A model generated the notes under the pieces. That model ran no database searches. It was not told the DNA's origin and saw nothing but the letters and a program-made list of their open reading frames with translations. Shown here piece after piece: positions 12,846-39,704 of a stretch of DNA of 64,000 nucleotides. The stretch is from the NCBI RefSeq assembly GCF_045037415.1, contig NZ_CP173438.1; one strand, given 5' to 3'. This DNA is from Escherichia coli. Its GTDB lineage: Bacteria > Pseudomonadota > Gammaproteobacteria > Enterobacterales > Enterobacteriaceae. The position numbers and the translations under genes are program-made. The stretch's first letter is position 1, and the number at the start of each line of letters is the position of its first letter.

Positions 12846-13541
12846 ATGCGAATTCTGGCTATCGATACCGCGACAGAGGCCTGCTCTGTCGCCCTGTGGA
12901 ACGACGGTACTGTCAACGCTCATTTTGAGCTTTGCCCTCGTGAACATACTCAACGAATCTTACCGATGGTGCAGGATATCCTGACCACCAGCGGAACTTC
13001 CCTGACTGACATAAACGCTCTGGCTTACGGGCGCGGCCCCGGTAGCTTTACCGGCGTGCGCATTGGTATTGGTATTGCGCAAGGGCTGGCACTTGGCGCA
13101 GAGCTGCCGATGATTGGCGTCTCCACGCTAATGACGATGGCGCAAGGGGCGTGGCGCAAAAACGGCGCAACCCGCGTGCTGGCAGCTATTGACGCGCGAA
13201 TGGGCGAAGTTTACTGGGCCGAATATCAGCGTGATGAAAACGGTATCTGGCACGGTGAAGAAACCGAAGCCGTACTCAAACCCGAACTGGTTCATGAACG
13301 AATGCAACAGCTTTCCGGCGAATGGGTGACGGTAGGGACGGGCTGGCAAGCCTGGCCGGATCTCGGTAAAGAGAGCGGGCTGGTTTTGCACGATGGCGAA
13401 GTGTTACTGCCCGCTGCAGAAGATATGCTGCCGATTGCGTGCCAGATGTTTGCCGAGGGTAAAACGGTGGCGGTGGAACATGCCGAACCAGTTTATTTAC
13501 GTAACAATGTCGCATGGAAGAAACTTCCGGGCAAAGAATGA
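12846..13541 (+). CDS. tsaB: tRNA threonylcarbamoyladenosine biosynthesis protein TsaB
   Basis: 231-aa [49 protein letters not shown]... recognised as TsaB (YeaZ). Confidence 0.95.
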
Positions 13542-13580
13542 ATCTTAAGAGTATGCCCTGAGAAAAAAAGGAGTCGCATC

Positions 13581-14162
13581 ATGGCGGTTCAAAAGAATGT
13601 TATCAAAGGCATACTGGCAGGTACGTTTGCGCTAATGCTGAGCGGTTGTGTTACTGTGCCGGACGCCATTAAAGGCAGTAGTCCCACGCCGCAACAAGAT
13701 TTAGTTCGGGTGATGAGTGCGCCGCAGCTGTACGTTGGTCAGGAGGCTCGCTTTGGCGGCAAAGTGGTTGCTGTACAAAACCAGCAAGGGAAAACCCGCC
13801 TGGAAATTGCCACCGTACCACTGGACAGCGGAGCCAGACCGACGCTGGGAGAACCTTCTCGCGGTCGCATTTATGCCGATGTGAACGGTTTTCTGGACCC
13901 GGTGGATTTCCGCGGACAACTGGTGACGGTAGTCGGGCCAATCACCGGTGCGGTTGACGGCAAAATCGGTAATACGCCCTATAAATTTATGGTGATGCAA
14001 GTAACGGGTTACAAACGTTGGCATTTAACCCAGCAGGTGATTATGCCGCCTCAGCCGATTGAACCATGGTTTTATGGCGGTCGTGGCTGGCCCTATGGCT
14101 ACGGCGGATGGGGCTGGTATAATCCCGGCCCCGCGAGAGTACAAACAGTTGTAACTGAATAA
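13581..14162 (+). CDS. yeaY: Slp-family outer-membrane lipoprotein
   Basis: 193-aa ORF with lipoprotein signal [23 protein letters not shown] (lipobox LSGC); recognised as YeaY. Confidence 0.92.
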
Positions 14163-14183
14163 TTGCTTGTTTTTAAAGAAAAA

Positions 14184-14295
14184 GAAACAGCGGCCGGTCC
14201 GCTGTTTCTGCATTCTTACGGTAAAGATAAAAATAAATAGTGACGCGCTTCGCAACCTTTTCCTTGGGTAATTATCAAGCTGGTAAGATGAGTTA
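14184..14295 (+). promoter_or_regulatory. fadD promoter region with two FadR-operator-like sites (GGCCGGTCCGCTGTTTC at 14192-14208; AGCTGGTAAGATGAGTT at 14278-14294)
   Basis: Both match the FadR operator pattern (CTGGT..GA....TT) and lie within 200 bp upstream of fadD; the upstream site is part of an inverted repeat GAAACAGCGG-CCGGT-CCGCTGTTTC (14184-14208) that could also terminate yeaY. Confidence 0.45.
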
Positions 14296-14366
14296 ATATT
14301 ATGTTAATAGCATGTTTATCACTTGGGGTTGCGATGACGACGAACACGCATTTTAGAGGTGAAGAA

Positions 14367-16052
14367 TTGAAGAAGGTTTGGCTTAACCGTTATCCCGCGG
14401 ACGTTCCGACGGAGATCAACCCTGACCGTTATCAATCTCTGGTAGATATGTTTGAGCAGTCGGTCGCACGCTATGCCGATCAACCCGCGTTTGTGAATAT
14501 GGGGGAGGTGATGACCTTCCGCAAACTGGAAGAACGCAGTCGCGCGTTTGCCGCTTATTTGCAACAAGGGTTGGGGCTGAAGAAAGGCGATCGCGTTGCG
14601 TTGATGATGCCTAACTTATTGCAATATCCGGTGGCGCTGTTTGGCATTTTGCGTGCCGGGATGATCGTCGTAAACGTTAACCCGTTGTATACCCCGCGTG
14701 AGCTTGAGCATCAGCTTAACGATAGCGGCGCATCGGCGATTGTTATCGTGTCTAACTTTGCCCACACTCTGGAAAAAGTGGTTGATAAAACCGCCGTTCA
14801 GCACGTTATTCTGACCCGTATGGGCGATCAGCTATCTACGGCAAAAGGCACGGTAGTCAATTTCGTTGTTAAATACATCAAGCGTCTGGTGCCGAAATAC
14901 CATCTGCCAGATGCCATTTCATTTCGTAGCGCCCTGCACAACGGCTACCGGATGCAGTACGTCAAACCAGAATTGGTGCCGGAAGATTTAGCTTTCCTGC
15001 AATACACCGGCGGCACCACTGGTGTGGCGAAAGGCGCGATGCTGACTCACCGCAATATGCTGGCGAACCTGGAACAGGTTAACGCGACCTATGGTCCGCT
15101 GTTGCATCCGGGCAAAGAGCTGGTGGTGACGGCGCTGCCGCTGTATCACATTTTTGCACTGACCATTAACTGCCTGCTGTTTATCGAACTGGGAGGGCAG
15201 AACCTGCTTATCACTAACCCGCGCGATATTCCAGGGCTGGTAAAAGAGTTAGCGAAATATCCGTTTACCGCTATCACTGGCGTTAACACCTTGTTCAATG
15301 CGTTGCTGAACAATAAAGAGTTCCAGCAGCTGGATTTCTCCAGTCTGCATCTTTCCGCAGGCGGTGGGATGCCTGTTCAGCAAGTGGTTGCAGAACGTTG
15401 GGTTAAACTGACTGGACAGTATCTGCTGGAAGGTTATGGCCTGACCGAGTGCGCGCCGCTGGTCAGCGTTAACCCGTATGATATTGATTATCATAGTGGT
15501 AGCATCGGTTTGCCGGTGCCGTCGACGGAAGCCAAACTGGTGGATGATGATGATAATGAAGTACCACCTGGTCAACCAGGTGAGCTTTGTGTCAAAGGAC
15601 CGCAGGTGATGCTGGGTTACTGGCAGCGTCCGGATGCTACCGATGAAATCATCAAAAATGGCTGGTTACACACCGGCGACATCGCGGTGATGGATGAAGA
15701 AGGATTCCTGCGCATTGTCGATCGTAAAAAAGATATGATTCTGGTTTCCGGTTTTAACGTCTATCCCAACGAGATTGAAGATGTCGTCATGCAGCATCCT
15801 GGCGTACAGGAAGTCGCGGCTGTTGGCGTACCTTCCGGCTCCAGTGGTGAAGCGGTGAAAATCTTCGTAGTGAAAAAAGATCCATCGCTTACCGAAGAGT
15901 CACTGGTGACCTTTTGCCGCCGTCAGCTCACGGGCTACAAAGTACCGAAGCTGGTGGAGTTTCGTGATGAGTTACCGAAATCTAACGTCGGAAAAATTTT
16001 GCGACGAGAATTACGTGACGAAGCGCGCGGCAAAGTGGACAATAAAGCCTGA
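14367..16052 (+). CDS. fadD: long-chain-fatty-acid--CoA ligase
   Basis: ORF 14301-16052; K-12-length product (561 aa) starts at TTG 14367 ([24 protein letters not shown]...) after AGAGGTGAAG; AMP-binding signature [14 protein letters not shown]. Confidence 0.95.
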
Positions 16053-16071
16053 GCGTTAAGTCAGTCGTCAG

Positions 16072-16097
16072 ACGCCGGTTAATCCGGCGTTTTTTTT
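16072..16097 (+). terminator. rho-independent terminator of fadD
   Basis: ACGCCGG-TTAAT-CCGGCGT stem-loop followed by TTTTTTTT, 20 bp after the fadD stop. Confidence 0.7.
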
Positions 16098-16121
16098 GAC
16101 GCCCACTAAAGAGAATACAAT

Positions 16122-17249
16122 TTGAATTACCAAATGATTACCACGGACGATGCGCTGGCTTCTTTGTGTGAAGCCGTCCGTGCCTTTCCGGCGATAGCCC
16201 TGGATACTGAATTTGTTCGTACGCGCACTTATTACCCGCAGCTGGGTTTAATTCAACTTTTTGATGGTGAGCATCTGGCGCTAATCGATCCACTCGGGAT
16301 CACCGACTGGTCACCGCTGAAAGCGATCCTGCGCGATCCGTCCATCACAAAATTTCTCCATGCAGGCAGTGAAGATCTGGAAGTGTTCCTCAATGTCTTT
16401 GGCGAATTACCACAACCCTTGATTGACACGCAAATCCTTGCTGCCTTCTGCGGACGCCCGATGTCATGGGGTTTCGCTTCCATGGTGGAAGAGTATTCCG
16501 GCGTTACGCTGGACAAGAGTGAATCGCGCACCGACTGGCTGGCCAGACCGCTGACCGAACGTCAGTGTGAATACGCAGCGGCGGATGTCTGGTATCTGTT
16601 ACCGATCACCGCAAAGCTTATGGTAGAAACGGAGGCCTCCGGCTGGCTACCTGCGGCGCTGGATGAATGCCGCCTGATGCAAATGCGTCGTCAGGAAGTC
16701 GTTGCGCCGGAAGACGCCTGGCGTGATATCACCAATGCCTGGCAGTTACGCACACGCCAACTGGCCTGTCTGCAACTGTTAGCCGACTGGCGATTGCGCA
16801 AGGCGCGAGAGCGCGATCTGGCGGTGAACTTTGTCGTGCGTGAAGAGCATTTGTGGTCGGTAGCGCGTTATATGCCGGGAAGTCTGGGCGAACTGGACAG
16901 CCTGGGCTTATCCGGTAGCGAAATCCGCTTCCACGGTAAAACGTTGCTGGCGCTGGTGGAAAAAGCGCAGGCATTGCCGGAAGAGGCCTTACCGCAGCCG
17001 ATGCTTAACCTGATGGACATGCCGGGTTATCGTAAAGCGTTTAAAGCGATTAAGTCGCTGATTACTGACGTCAGCGAAACGCACAAGATCAGCGCCGAAT
17101 TGCTGGCATCGCGTCGGCAAATCAACCAACTGCTGAACTGGCACTGGAAACTGAAACCGCAGAACAATTTGCCGGAGCTGATTTCCGGCTGGCGTGGTGA
17201 GCTGATGGCGGAAGCATTACACAATTTATTGCAGGAATATCCACAGTAA
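16122..17249 (+). CDS. rnd: ribonuclease D
   Basis: 375-aa ORF beginning at TTG (rnd is known to use a UUG start); MNYQMITTDDALASLCEAVRAFPAIALDTEFVRTRTYYPQLGLIQLF... Confidence 0.95.
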   Translation: MNYQMITTDDALASLCEAVRAFPAIALDTEFVRTRTYYPQLGLIQLFDGEHLALIDPLGITDWSPLKAILRDPSITKFLHAGSEDLEVFLNVFGELPQPLIDTQILAAFCGRPMSWGFASMVEEYSGVTLDKSESRTDWLARPLTERQCEYAAADVWYLLPITAKLMVETEASGWLPAALDECRLMQMRRQEVVAPEDAWRDITNAWQLRTRQLACLQLLADWRLRKARERDLAVNFVVREEHLWSVARYMPGSLGELDSLGLSGSEIRFHGKTLLALVEKAQALPEEALPQPMLNLMDMPGYRKAFKAIKSLITDVSETHKISAELLASRRQINQLLNWHWKLKPQNNLPELISGWRGELMAEALHNLLQEYPQ

Positions 17250-25019: not shown

Positions 25020-26510
25020 TCATGAACGGCTGTTTTTGTTCTGCTTATTGACATATAAACGCTCATCGGAAGCTTTATACGCATCATGTAACGTATCGTT
25101 TTCTTTCATCGCGTAAATACCGGAAGAGAAGCCGATCTCTTTCTGCGGCGCGATATGTTGCAGACGTTTTTCGATACGTTCAGGCAGTTGTGCTGCAATT
25201 TGCGGCGTCGAATCGACAAGAATGATGCAGAATTCATCGCCACCGAGTCGGATGGCATAATCACTTTTACGAATCGACTGTTTAATCGCCTGAGCTAATA
25301 ACGTAATCGCTAAATCCCCCTCCTGATGACCGAGGGTGTCATTTATTTGCTTTAACTTGTCCATGTCAATAGCAATAAACATCACCGAAGAACCGGATTG
25401 CACCAGTTTCTGCAACCGCTGCTCCAGTTCAGGGGTTAAAATTTTGCGATTATAGAGTCCAGTCATCGCATCACTAATATTTTCTCGCGACACATTTTGG
25501 TATAAGCGGAAGTGCATCCGCACCATATTCAGCAAAATTAACGCCGTCAAAATCCAGAACAGAACGCTTTTCCACGAAGACGTGATAAAGTAAAGAATAT
25601 CAATGGATAACGAGACACGAATGCCGCCCGGTAAGTCATGGACGTAACTGACATACTGGAACAGATTATCTTCGCTCTGGTTGATGATAATGTCGCGCCC
25701 CGAATCTGTATCGGTTAGCGTGACATTGAGAAAACGCCAGAGGAGAGGGCGGTCATGAGTGTAAAAGATATTCCGCAGATTGTTTTTGTTAATATCCAGC
25801 AGCACAATCCCTTTTAGCTGCCCTGCGACATATACCGGCGTCAGCAAACTCATCACGTTCTGTTTAGTACGCTGATCCTGGTAAATGCTCGATAATACGG
25901 TACGCCCGGTAAATACTTTTTCAATATCTTTGCGATCGATACCAATACTTCCTGATTGCAGGAAGGACCAGTTATTCATCGCAAAGTATTCAACATTAAC
26001 CGGCTCATAAAAATAGACATAGCGGTCATTGAGATCGAGATAATAGTGAAATTTCTCTTCGGCCATCCCAAGACCTGAACCGTAATCATCCTGGTGGCGG
26101 TTGCCTTCCACTGCCTGATCAAAAGCGGGTAATAGTGCTGCAGCTTCCACAATTGTGTCGCAGTCAGTGGATGCGGTTTGTAGTGTGCCGCGTAAGCCCT
26201 GGTATTTATGAGCAGTCAGGTTTAAGCCATGGGTATTATTGGCAGACTCAAAAGCCTCGCAGATAGCGCGCCGTTGTTCTGGCGGTACTTCCGACTGCTC
26301 AGCAGCGAGAGCGCGCATCACATGCGCGGCAATACTCTGATTCTGATACTTATCATAAAGAAAGGAAGAGTCTGCTCTCTGCACGATATAGCGCAGATAG
26401 GCACTCATTGCTCTGTCGCTGGCGACAAGTTCAAAAATAAGGAAGGAAGATGTCAGCACAATGACACTTGCGGCGATAAAATGCCGGAGCATTCTATGGT
26501 GCAATTTCAT
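25020..26510 (-). CDS. dgcJ: membrane-bound diguanylate cyclase
   Basis: ORF 25020-26690; K-12-length product (496 aa) begins MKLHHRMLRHFIAASVIVLTSSFLIFELVAS...; intact AIRLGGDEFCIILVD GGDEF motif. Confidence 0.9.
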   Translation of the reverse strand: MKLHHRMLRHFIAASVIVLTSSFLIFELVASDRAMSAYLRYIVQRADSSFLYDKYQNQSIAAHVMRALAAEQSEVPPEQRRAICEAFESANNTHGLNLTAHKYQGLRGTLQTASTDCDTIVEAAALLPAFDQAVEGNRHQDDYGSGLGMAEEKFHYYLDLNDRYVYFYEPVNVEYFAMNNWSFLQSGSIGIDRKDIEKVFTGRTVLSSIYQDQRTKQNVMSLLTPVYVAGQLKGIVLLDINKNNLRNIFYTHDRPLLWRFLNVTLTDTDSGRDIIINQSEDNLFQYVSYVHDLPGGIRVSLSIDILYFITSSWKSVLFWILTALILLNMVRMHFRLYQNVSRENISDAMTGLYNRKILTPELEQRLQKLVQSGSSVMFIAIDMDKLKQINDTLGHQEGDLAITLLAQAIKQSIRKSDYAIRLGGDEFCIILVDSTPQIAAQLPERIEKRLQHIAPQKEIGFSSGIYAMKENDTLHDAYKASDERLYVNKQNKNSRS

Positions 26511-32078: not shown

Positions 32079-32825
32079 GTGACCAAACTCAAACTTCTGG
32101 CACTTGGAGTGCTTATCGCAACGTCTGCAGGCGTAGCGCACGCTGAAGGTAAATTTTCCCTGGGCGCAGGCGTAGGTGTCGTTGAACACCCATATAAAGA
32201 TTACGATACCGATGTTTACCCAGTACCGGTAATCAACTATGAAGGCGATAACTTCTGGTTCCGTGGCTTAGGTGGTGGTTACTACCTGTGGAATGACGCG
32301 ACGGACAAACTTTCAATTACCGCTTACTGGTCGCCGCTTTACTTCAAAGCTAAAGACAGTGGCGATCACCAAATGCGTCACCTCGATGACCGTAAGAGCA
32401 CCATGATGGCTGGTCTGTCTTATGCTCACTTTACCCAGTACGGTTACCTGCGTACCACCCTGGCTGGCGATACCCTGGATAACAGCAACGGCATCGTCTG
32501 GGATATGGCCTGGTTGTATCGTTACACCAACGGTGGCCTGACCGTGACTCCGGGTATTGGTGTGCAGTGGAACAGCGAAAACCAGAACGAATACTATTAT
32601 GGCGTATCGCGCAAAGAGTCCGCTCGCAGCGGTCTGCGTGGCTATAACCCGAACGACAGCTGGAGCCCTTACCTGGAGCTGAGCGCCAGCTACAACTTCC
32701 TCGGCGACTGGAGTGTTTACGGTACCGCGCGCTACACCCGTCTGTCTGATGAAGTTACTGACAGCCCAATGGTGGATAAATCCTGGACTGGCCTGATTTC
32801 TACCGGGATCACCTACAAATTCTGA
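32079..32825 (+). CDS. mipA: MltA-interacting outer-membrane protein
   Basis: 248-aa ORF with signal peptide MTKLKLLALGVLIATSAGVAHAEGKFSLGAGVGVVEHPYKDYDTDVYP...; C-terminal YKF. Confidence 0.94.
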   Translation: MTKLKLLALGVLIATSAGVAHAEGKFSLGAGVGVVEHPYKDYDTDVYPVPVINYEGDNFWFRGLGGGYYLWNDATDKLSITAYWSPLYFKAKDSGDHQMRHLDDRKSTMMAGLSYAHFTQYGYLRTTLAGDTLDNSNGIVWDMAWLYRYTNGGLTVTPGIGVQWNSENQNEYYYGVSRKESARSGLRGYNPNDSWSPYLELSASYNFLGDWSVYGTARYTRLSDEVTDSPMVDKSWTGLISTGITYKF

Positions 32826-38324: not shown

Positions 38325-39704
38325 ATGGAACAGATAACAAAACCGCATTGTGGTGCACGGCTGGATCGCTTACCGGATTGCCGCTGGCATTCGTCGATGT
38401 TTGCCATCGTCGCGTTTGGCCTGCTTGTCTGCTGGAGTAATGCCGTTGGTGGCTTGATCCTCGCGCAGCTGAAAGCGTTGGGCTGGACAGATAATTCCAC
38501 CACTGCCACATTCTCAGCAATCACGACCGCCGGAATGTTTCTCGGTGCGCTGGTGGGCGGCATCATCGGTGACAAAACCGGTCGCAGAAATGCGTTTATC
38601 CTCTATGAGGCCATTCATATTGCCTCGATGGTTGTCGGTGCTTTCTCACCGAATATGGATTTCCTTATTGCCTGCCGTTTTGTGATGGGCGTTGGGCTGG
38701 GAGCTTTACTGGTTACACTGTTTGCTGGTTTCACCGAATATATGCCCGGAAGAAATCGCGGAACGTGGTCCAGTCGGGTTTCCTTTATTGGTAACTGGTC
38801 ATATCCGCTCTGTTCATTGATTGCGATGGGACTCACGCCGCTGATTAGTGCAGAGTGGAACTGGCGGGTACAACTGCTTATCCCTGCAATATTGTCACTT
38901 ATCGCTACGGCGCTGGCCTGGCGCTACTTTCCTGAATCCCCGCGCTGGCTGGAATCGCGCGGACGTTATCAGGAAGCCGAGAAAGTCATGCGGAGTATAG
39001 AAGAAGGCGTCATACGCCAGACGGGTAAACCTTTGCCGCCTGTGGTTATTGCTGATGACGGTAAAGCACCACAAGCGGTGCCGTATTCAGCCTTACTGAC
39101 AGGAGTATTACTGAAACGCGTGATATTAGGCTCTTGTGTGCTGATTGCCATGAACGTTGTGCAGTACACACTAATTAACTGGTTGCCAACGATATTCATG
39201 ACCCAGGGAATTAATTTAAAAGACTCGATTGTTTTAAATACCATGAGTATGTTTGGCGCGCCATTTGGTATTTTTATTGCCATGCTGGTGATGGATAAAA
39301 TTCCGCGTAAAACAATGGGTGTGGGGCTATTAATCCTGATTGCGGTGCTCGGATATATCTATTCACTGCAAACCAGTATGTTGCTCATAACGCTGATTGG
39401 TTTCTTCCTGATTACTTTCGTCTATATGTACGTTTGCTATGCCTCGGCAGTGTATGTCCCTGAGATCTGGCCGACAGAGGCCAAACTCCGTGGCTCCGGT
39501 CTGGCGAATGCGGTAGGGCGAATCAGTGGTATTGCCGCACCTTATGCCGTTGCAGTGCTGCTCAGTAGTTATGGCGTAACGGGAGTCTTTATTCTTCTGG
39601 GGGCTGTTTCAATTATTGTCGCAATTGCTATCGCCACCATTGGAATTGAAACCAAAGGTGTCTCCGTTGAAAGTTTAAGTATTGATGCAGTAGCCAATAA
39701 ATAA
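38325..39704 (+). CDS. ydjK: MFS sugar-family transporter
   Basis: 459-aa ORF MEQITKPHCGARLDRLPDCRWHSSMFAIVAFGLLVCWSNAVGG...; 12-TM profile. Confidence 0.93.
   Translation: MEQITKPHCGARLDRLPDCRWHSSMFAIVAFGLLVCWSNAVGGLILAQLKALGWTDNSTTATFSAITTAGMFLGALVGGIIGDKTGRRNAFILYEAIHIASMVVGAFSPNMDFLIACRFVMGVGLGALLVTLFAGFTEYMPGRNRGTWSSRVSFIGNWSYPLCSLIAMGLTPLISAEWNWRVQLLIPAILSLIATALAWRYFPESPRWLESRGRYQEAEKVMRSIEEGVIRQTGKPLPPVVIADDGKAPQAVPYSALLTGVLLKRVILGSCVLIAMNVVQYTLINWLPTIFMTQGINLKDSIVLNTMSMFGAPFGIFIAMLVMDKIPRKTMGVGLLILIAVLGYIYSLQTSMLLITLIGFFLITFVYMYVCYASAVYVPEIWPTEAKLRGSGLANAVGRISGIAAPYAVAVLLSSYGVTGVFILLGAVSIIVAIAIATIGIETKGVSVESLSIDAVANK

Follow-up and report, generated by a model that had tools for sequence, protein, structure and literature searches.

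A conserved FadR operator and a weak distal site on a yeaY-sense 3′ hairpin upstream of Escherichia coli fadD

Of the two FadR-type sites that precede fadD in this E. coli window (the whole 64,000-nucleotide stretch of DNA that we analysed), the proximal one is very probably the working operator, and the distal one a weak OD2 lying on a conserved 3′ hairpin of yeaY-sense RNA. This joint reading draws on sequence identity, position weight matrix (PWM) ranks, conservation, covariation, and allele counts from our analysis, and on FadR binding, the fadD transcription start site, and CRP binding from the literature. The two operators are already known, and the promoter is that of K-12 with two common single-base alleles. 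There is thus little discovery value in the sites themselves, which were described as early as 1992 and later included in regulatory databases. The overlap of the hairpin with the distal site, and the lack of conservation of the distal core, are not stated in the fadD literature that we surveyed, and we regard them as small, modest refinements. They bear on the puzzling FadR site near -100, whose apparent conservation is accounted for by the stem of the yeaY-sense hairpin and not by the FadR core. That core varies between genera and is polymorphic within E. coli, where natural T and C alleles are found.

The window carries the E. coli chromosomal locus yoaA-tsaB-yeaY-fadD-rnd. A 401-bp region around both sites is 100% identical to several E. 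coli chromosomes (for example, that of strain SK1144) and finds a match in 5425/5426 complete E. coli genomes; over the yeaY-fadD locus, identity to K-12 MG1655 is 98%. In the RefSeq annotation of matching loci, yoaA, tsaB, yeaY, and fadD share one orientation, which is plus in the window. From the list of open reading frames and the annotation of the identical and K-12 loci, the yeaY coding sequence, for an Slp-family lipoprotein, occupies 13581-14162 (+) and ends with a TAA stop codon at 14160-14162. The fadD coding sequence, which begins with TTG, occupies 14367-16052 (+) according to the annotation of the identical locus and the same list. The 204-bp gap between these genes contains both FadR sites, and with few exceptions among 80 enterobacterial loci its length is 202 to 208 bp; the intergenic region is unusually indel-free. 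In the mechanical list of open reading frames, fadD is extended upstream to an ATG at 14301 (14301-14366), giving 583 aa. We take the true start, on the basis of annotation and N-terminal sequencing, to be the TTG at 14367. Because the ATG at 14301 precedes the published transcription start (14307), the extension could not be translated from the fadD promoter.

A first-pass annotation of this DNA had proposed two FadR-type operators before fadD, at 14192-14208 (GGCCGGTCCGCTGTTTC) and 14278-14294 (AGCTGGTAAGATGAGTT), and both positions proved exact. These are the published fadD FadR sites on the plus strand: the former is the distal site (OD2, or ‘site 2’), which reads GGCTGGTCCGCTGTTTC in K-12, and the latter is the proximal operator (OD1, or ‘site 1’), which reads AGCTGGTATGATGAGTT in K-12. 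Alignment shows a one-base difference from K-12 in each 17-mer. The K-12 versions of both lie within electrophoretic mobility shift (EMSA) probes of Feng & Cronan (2012, PMC3460868), in which the probe ‘fadD-FadR-site1’ (GTAATTATCAAGCTGGTATGATGAGTTAATATTATG) corresponds to the proximal site and ‘site2’ (GAAACAGCGGCTGGTCCGCTGTTTCTGCATTCT) to the distal hairpin site, equivalent to window positions 14184-14216. The fadD FadR probes reappear in PMC4259882.

The binding data for these sites come from K-12. Feng & Cronan describe two fadD sites 68 bp apart, with FadR binding to site 1 resembling that to the fadL sites and binding to site 2 being >10-fold weaker in vitro (PMC3460868). Oleoyl-CoA, a long-chain acyl-CoA, released FadR from 4/4 sites tested, and both FadR binding and acyl-CoA release are reported for the K-12 alleles of the two fadD sites. 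Their EMSA results agree with earlier DNase I footprints at both K-12 sites, and repression of fadD by FadR is modest (PMC3460868). The site 2 probe, GAAACAGCGGCTGGTCCGCTGTTTCTGCATTCT, includes a complete hairpin with 10-bp arms; because it holds the whole hairpin, the oligonucleotides can self-fold during annealing, which might add to the low apparent affinity.

Relative to K-12 OD1 and OD2 (Black et al. 1992, J Biol Chem 267:25513; Feng & Cronan 2012, PMC3460868), the present promoter has the same locus, positions, CRP box, and TTG start codon, and differs in that OD2 has C instead of T within its CTGG core and OD1 has A instead of T at a central, non-consensus position. Among the other fad genes, it is fadL that also has a pair of FadR sites, and its repression is likewise modest (PMC3460868). 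The fadL sites, however, are 8 bp apart, both at the promoter, and of equal affinity (PMC3460868), whereas those of fadD are ~68-69 bp apart and >10-fold apart in affinity, with the distal one located in the 3′ hairpin of the upstream gene.

Transcription of fadD starts 60 bp upstream of the start codon (PMC3460868). In the window, this published start corresponds to an A at 14307 (+), which places the proximal site at -29 to -13 and the distal site at -115 to -99. The 1992 abstract by Black et al. is said to give footprints of -13 to -29 and -99 to -115, an exact match to the coordinates derived from the published start. The proximal site fills the promoter spacer: judging from the distance to the start, the candidate -35 hexamer is TTATCA (14272-14277, +), and the candidate -10 element (14294-14302, +) is TAATAT at 14294-14299 or TATTAT at 14297-14302. 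A consensus scan did not call TTATCA as a -35 hexamer, as expected for a weak CRP-dependent promoter. The proximal site at -29 to -13 overlaps the core promoter, and the distal site at -115 to -99 does not. Between them lies a CRP box, AGTGA-N6-TCGCA (14239-14254, +), which is centred at about -60.5, a class I position, and is covered by the published CRP probe for fadD, which corresponds to window positions 14221-14268. A class I CRP site has been described between the two fadD FadR sites, along with an ArcA site that overlaps FadR site 2 by 1 bp (PMC3460868). In the mechanism established by the literature, with which the present sequence agrees, a FadR dimer on the proximal operator occupies the promoter spacer, flanked by the -35 and -10 elements, and excludes RNA polymerase; long-chain acyl-CoA releases it. 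Activation of fadD by CRP-cAMP takes place from about -60.5, and ArcA is an anaerobic repressor of the gene.

To score both sites against the FadR pattern, we built a PWM from five non-fadD sites taken from published probes (fadL1, fadL2, fadBA, fabA, and fabB). The published consensus is a 17-bp pseudo-palindrome resembling aaCTGGTCnGACC(T/A)Gtt (PMC9329746). With so small a matrix the ranks are rough, and on this scale the proximal site reaches 11.3 to 12.0 bits, which puts it at rank 3 to 11 among the ~64,000 positions of the window (top 0.02%). For the distal site the score is 3.3 bits (-0.8 once the matrix is palindromised) and the rank 606 to 1222 of ~64,000; about 1% of positions score at least as high, which is chance level. 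The K-12 distal allele reaches 6.7 bits. Only the left half of the distal site resembles the FadR consensus, and a T in that half is replaced by C in this strain. The earlier proposal that both sites fit the FadR pattern, for which PWM scores were to be the check, thus holds for the proximal site but not for the distal one, where the T of CTGGT, otherwise conserved, is missing in this strain. Our knowledge of the distal site is owed to footprinting alone.

The same division appears across species. A search with YeaY, keeping one genome per species, yielded 80 loci ranging from Escherichia to Cedecea, Kosakonia, and Klebsiella. An equivalent of the proximal operator is present in 80/80 species, with every column at least 90% identical, and it reads AACTGGTACGCTGAGTT in 71 of the 80. 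Hardly any variation is seen in the CRP box, the proximal operator, or the -10 region, and the sequence TTAATAT(T/A)ATGTTAA at the -10 region is conserved in the species alignment. The near-invariance of the CRP box (14239-14254) includes its flank, AGTGACGCGCTTCGCAACC, in ~80 enterobacterial species. The median PWM score of the equivalents across species is 10.3 bits for the proximal site versus 2.1 bits for the distal one, and the FadR recognition core is conserved at the former and not at the latter. At the proximal position, the operator is both genuine and conserved.

At the distal position, the conserved element is a stem-loop of the intrinsic-terminator type in yeaY-sense RNA (14183-14209, +). 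Its 11-bp stem joins 14183-14193 to 14199-14209 around a 5-nt loop, CCGGT (14194-14198). The first-pass annotation had seen here a 10-bp inverted repeat directly after yeaY, with the distal operator as one of its arms. The repeat is real, though its perfect arms are 11 nt long and start 21 nt past the stop codon. To call the distal site one arm is slightly too simple: it begins with the final 2 nt of the left arm, runs through the entire loop, and takes in 10 nt of the right arm. The predicted folding energy of the hairpin is -16.1 kcal/mol, and the RNA fold z-score is -3.6 against dinucleotide shuffles, with 0/200 shuffles folding as well. The sequence CAGCGG-N5-CCGCTG occurs in 80/80 fetched loci that extend far enough past yeaY.

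Covariation in an ungapped alignment of 81 sequences (68 distinct) points to selection on pairing. Within the 11-bp helix, 99.1% of cells are paired and 24 cells are compensatory; compensatory change affects three pairs, as at columns 13/33, where A-U has become G-C in 17 sequences. The helix measures exceed 500/500 shuffles, except for the count of pairs changed on both sides (51/500), and all covariation measures exceed every slid control. Among the inner ten pairs, 17/17 non-Watson-Crick cells are G·U when read on the plus strand, and none is A·C; these cells come from about ten separate lineages. This asymmetry argues for an RNA structure on the yeaY-sense strand, and against both a palindrome in DNA and an RNA from the minus strand. 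Being invariant, the six core stem pairs are uninformative on whether the constraint acts on RNA or DNA.

We also considered whether the hairpin belongs to a known element. A REP-like repeat was rejected, as the 39-mer occurs once per genome. Rfam scans of 13400-16300 and 14100-14300 returned only sroD above threshold. Matches over the hairpin to Ysr190, EF3314_EF3315, and tpke11 were far below gathering scores and were set aside as generic terminator resemblance; that to the Yersinia sRNA Ysr190 (14136-14253, -) reached 26 bits against a gathering score of 66.

We regard the element as a yeaY 3′ hairpin of the terminator type and, from its sequence, infer that it terminates yeaY transcripts. 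It shares with Rho-independent terminators, including bidirectional ones with an A-tract and a U-tract, a GC-rich stem, a short loop, a position ~20 nt past the stop codon, and stem covariation. As in bidirectional terminators, its 5′ side is A-rich and its 3′ side T-rich. Unlike in typical Rho-independent terminators, the plus-strand U-tract is degenerate in E. coli: the tail, GCAUUCUU, has 4 U in 8 and is weak. If the stem is taken as the invariant GC core only, the plus-strand tail becomes UUUCUGCAUU. Enterobacter and Lelliottia have the hairpin followed by GUUUUUUU (7 of 8 in Enterobacter), a canonical intrinsic-terminator architecture, and tails are poorer in E. coli, Salmonella, and Citrobacter. 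The hairpin would be a strong terminator in Enterobacter-like species, and the yeaY terminator is probably leaky in E. coli. A terminator scan called the hairpin on the minus strand only, with no call on the plus strand, and a secondary role as a bidirectional terminator is possible.

Published maps of RNA 3′ ends bear on this question in K-12. In the tables of the Term-seq study by Adams et al. (2021), there is a fadD/sroD 3′ end and no yeaY entry, perhaps because yeaY is too weakly expressed; the interval from the fadD/sroD end to 1,893,787 is free of listed 3′ ends. The SMRT-Cappable-seq supplements make no mention of yeaY or fadD. The idea that the distal DNA serves as the yeaY terminator is favoured by covariation and by strand-specific G·U pairing, but the weak E. 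coli U-tract and the missing yeaY 3′ end in the Adams et al. tables count against it.

These same observations could be accommodated if the hairpin were not a terminator. It might act as a protective 3′ stem-loop after Rho-dependent termination or processing, or as a leaky attenuator, with yeaY reading into fadD. Such roles would fit the 47/81 sequences that have only 2 to 4 T in the 8 nt past the stem (E. coli, Salmonella, and Citrobacter being poor in this respect), the Term-seq tables, and the fact that the stem is nonetheless strongly conserved on the sense strand. In the other 34/81 sequences, however, 5 to 7 T in 8 follow the stem, as in canonical intrinsic terminators, and with the stem limited to the invariant GC core, a tail beginning with UUUCU or UCUCU is seen in every species. 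We consider a non-terminator role possible but unlikely. We also rejected the notion that FadR compensates for a leaky terminator: weak U-tracts do not correlate with CTGGT, CTGGT loops are found with good and poor tails, and tails in the Citrobacter freundii group are poor yet come without CTGGT.

The columns of the distal 17-mer that belong to the stem are 100% conserved, versus only 40-78% for the four positions of the FadR core. The five-base loop comes in 22 variants, and just 12/81 sequences have CTGGT. Both fadD sites have been called ‘largely conserved’ in Citrobacter, Klebsiella, and Enterobacter (PMC3460868); given the column values, this 2012 remark reflects the stem and not the FadR core.

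Variation within Escherichia affects the same core. At window position 14195, the C allele (T to C in the CTGG core) is carried by 1023/5426 E. coli genomes (19%) and the T allele by 4393/5426. The T of the CTGG core is present in 5/5 reference FadR sites, and the C allele should lower FadR affinity, a prediction made from sequence. Because the outgroups E. albertii, E. whittamii, and Salmonella carry T at the distal site, the C allele is derived. A cryptic-clade Escherichia genome has the loop CAGGC, a second, independent disruption of the core in the genus. In the proximal operator, the A allele at 14286 (T to A, at the central non-consensus position) is found in 852/5426 genomes (16%) and the T allele in 4536/5426. 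The carrier sets of the distal C and proximal A alleles differ in size, indicating that the two single-nucleotide polymorphisms are imperfectly linked.

These data can be set against a model in which both sites are functional and jointly repress fadD, either because FadR dimers whose centres are 86 bp apart cooperate or form a loop, or because FadR at the distal site stops read-through from yeaY, with the same DNA serving as terminator and operator. The K-12 sites both show DNase I footprints and EMSA binding (PMC3460868), the ArcA site abuts the distal site, and 65/80 species have exactly 86 bp between hairpin and proximal operator. This constant spacing is nonetheless explained by the indel-free region with its conserved CRP box and promoter. 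Moreover, the core half-site is absent in 69/81 sequences, and it has been disrupted twice within Escherichia, by the C allele (19% of E. coli) and by CAGGC in the cryptic clade. To our knowledge, FadR occurs only as a dimer. The >10-fold weaker distal binding in vitro and the only modest repression of fadD also speak against joint repression. A 2022 review calls the site near -100 ‘surprising’ for a repressor and reports no in vivo test of it (PMC9329746). We judge joint repression from two functional operators to be distinctly improbable. A conserved second operator at the distal position is unlikely, and the variation described here argues for an incidental or lineage-specific weak site.

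A third possibility, that the palindrome acts on the minus strand or as DNA, either as a terminator for antisense or divergent transcripts originating at the fadD promoter region or as the site of another dimeric protein, would agree with the sole scan-positive terminator being on the minus strand (tail TTTTTCTTTAA), with the conserved A-tract upstream of the hairpin (minus-strand reading TTTTTCTTT), and with a minus-strand tail of 7 T in 8 past the core stem in 38/81 sequences, but we hold it to be quite remote, as each plus-strand G·U, if read on the minus strand, would become a mismatched A·C (17 vs 0), compensatory changes keep pairing and not base identity, against a protein recognition sequence, and no minus-strand promoter was called downstream of the hairpin. 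The G·U asymmetry likewise disfavours termination on the minus strand as the primary function.

Under the joint reading, with a working proximal operator and a weak OD2 on the yeaY hairpin, selection at the distal position would keep a yeaY-sense RNA hairpin made up of the core CAGCGG/CCGCUG, an extension of A/U pairs, and a U-containing tail. The distal footprint would come from a single half-site, CTGGTCCG, in the loop of this hairpin. That half-site is specific to certain lineages (Escherichia, Salmonella, and a few others), and the T-to-C change in its CTGG core should degrade it further in the present strain. The first-pass suggestion that one piece of DNA serves as both yeaY terminator and FadR operator is literally correct for K-12 in vitro, although evolution supports the two roles very unequally.

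Since FadR both footprints and shifts the K-12 distal site in vitro, an auxiliary role in strains with the T allele is possible. One conceivable form, which we consider highly speculative, is that FadR bound to the yeaY-hairpin DNA of such strains acts as a roadblock that modulates termination or read-through, the C allele then being a natural loss of this function. Were this so, read-through from tsaB-yeaY into fadD would be coupled to fatty-acid availability, and the T-to-C allele, at 19% of E. coli, would lead to lineage-specific basal fadD expression.

Elsewhere in the window, the PWM gave other high-scoring matches at 38793-38809, 25957-25973, and 32786-32802 (e.g. AACTGGTCATATCCGCT and TGCAGGAAGGACCAGTT); all three were checked and lie inside long open reading frames, and they are probably chance matches. 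Downstream of the fadD promoter, the sRNA sroD (Rfam RF00370, 115 bits) maps to 16011-16096 (+), across the last part of fadD and the gap that separates it from rnd, and a 3′ end matching sroD appears at K-12 positions 1888017-1888020 in the Term-seq tables of Adams et al.
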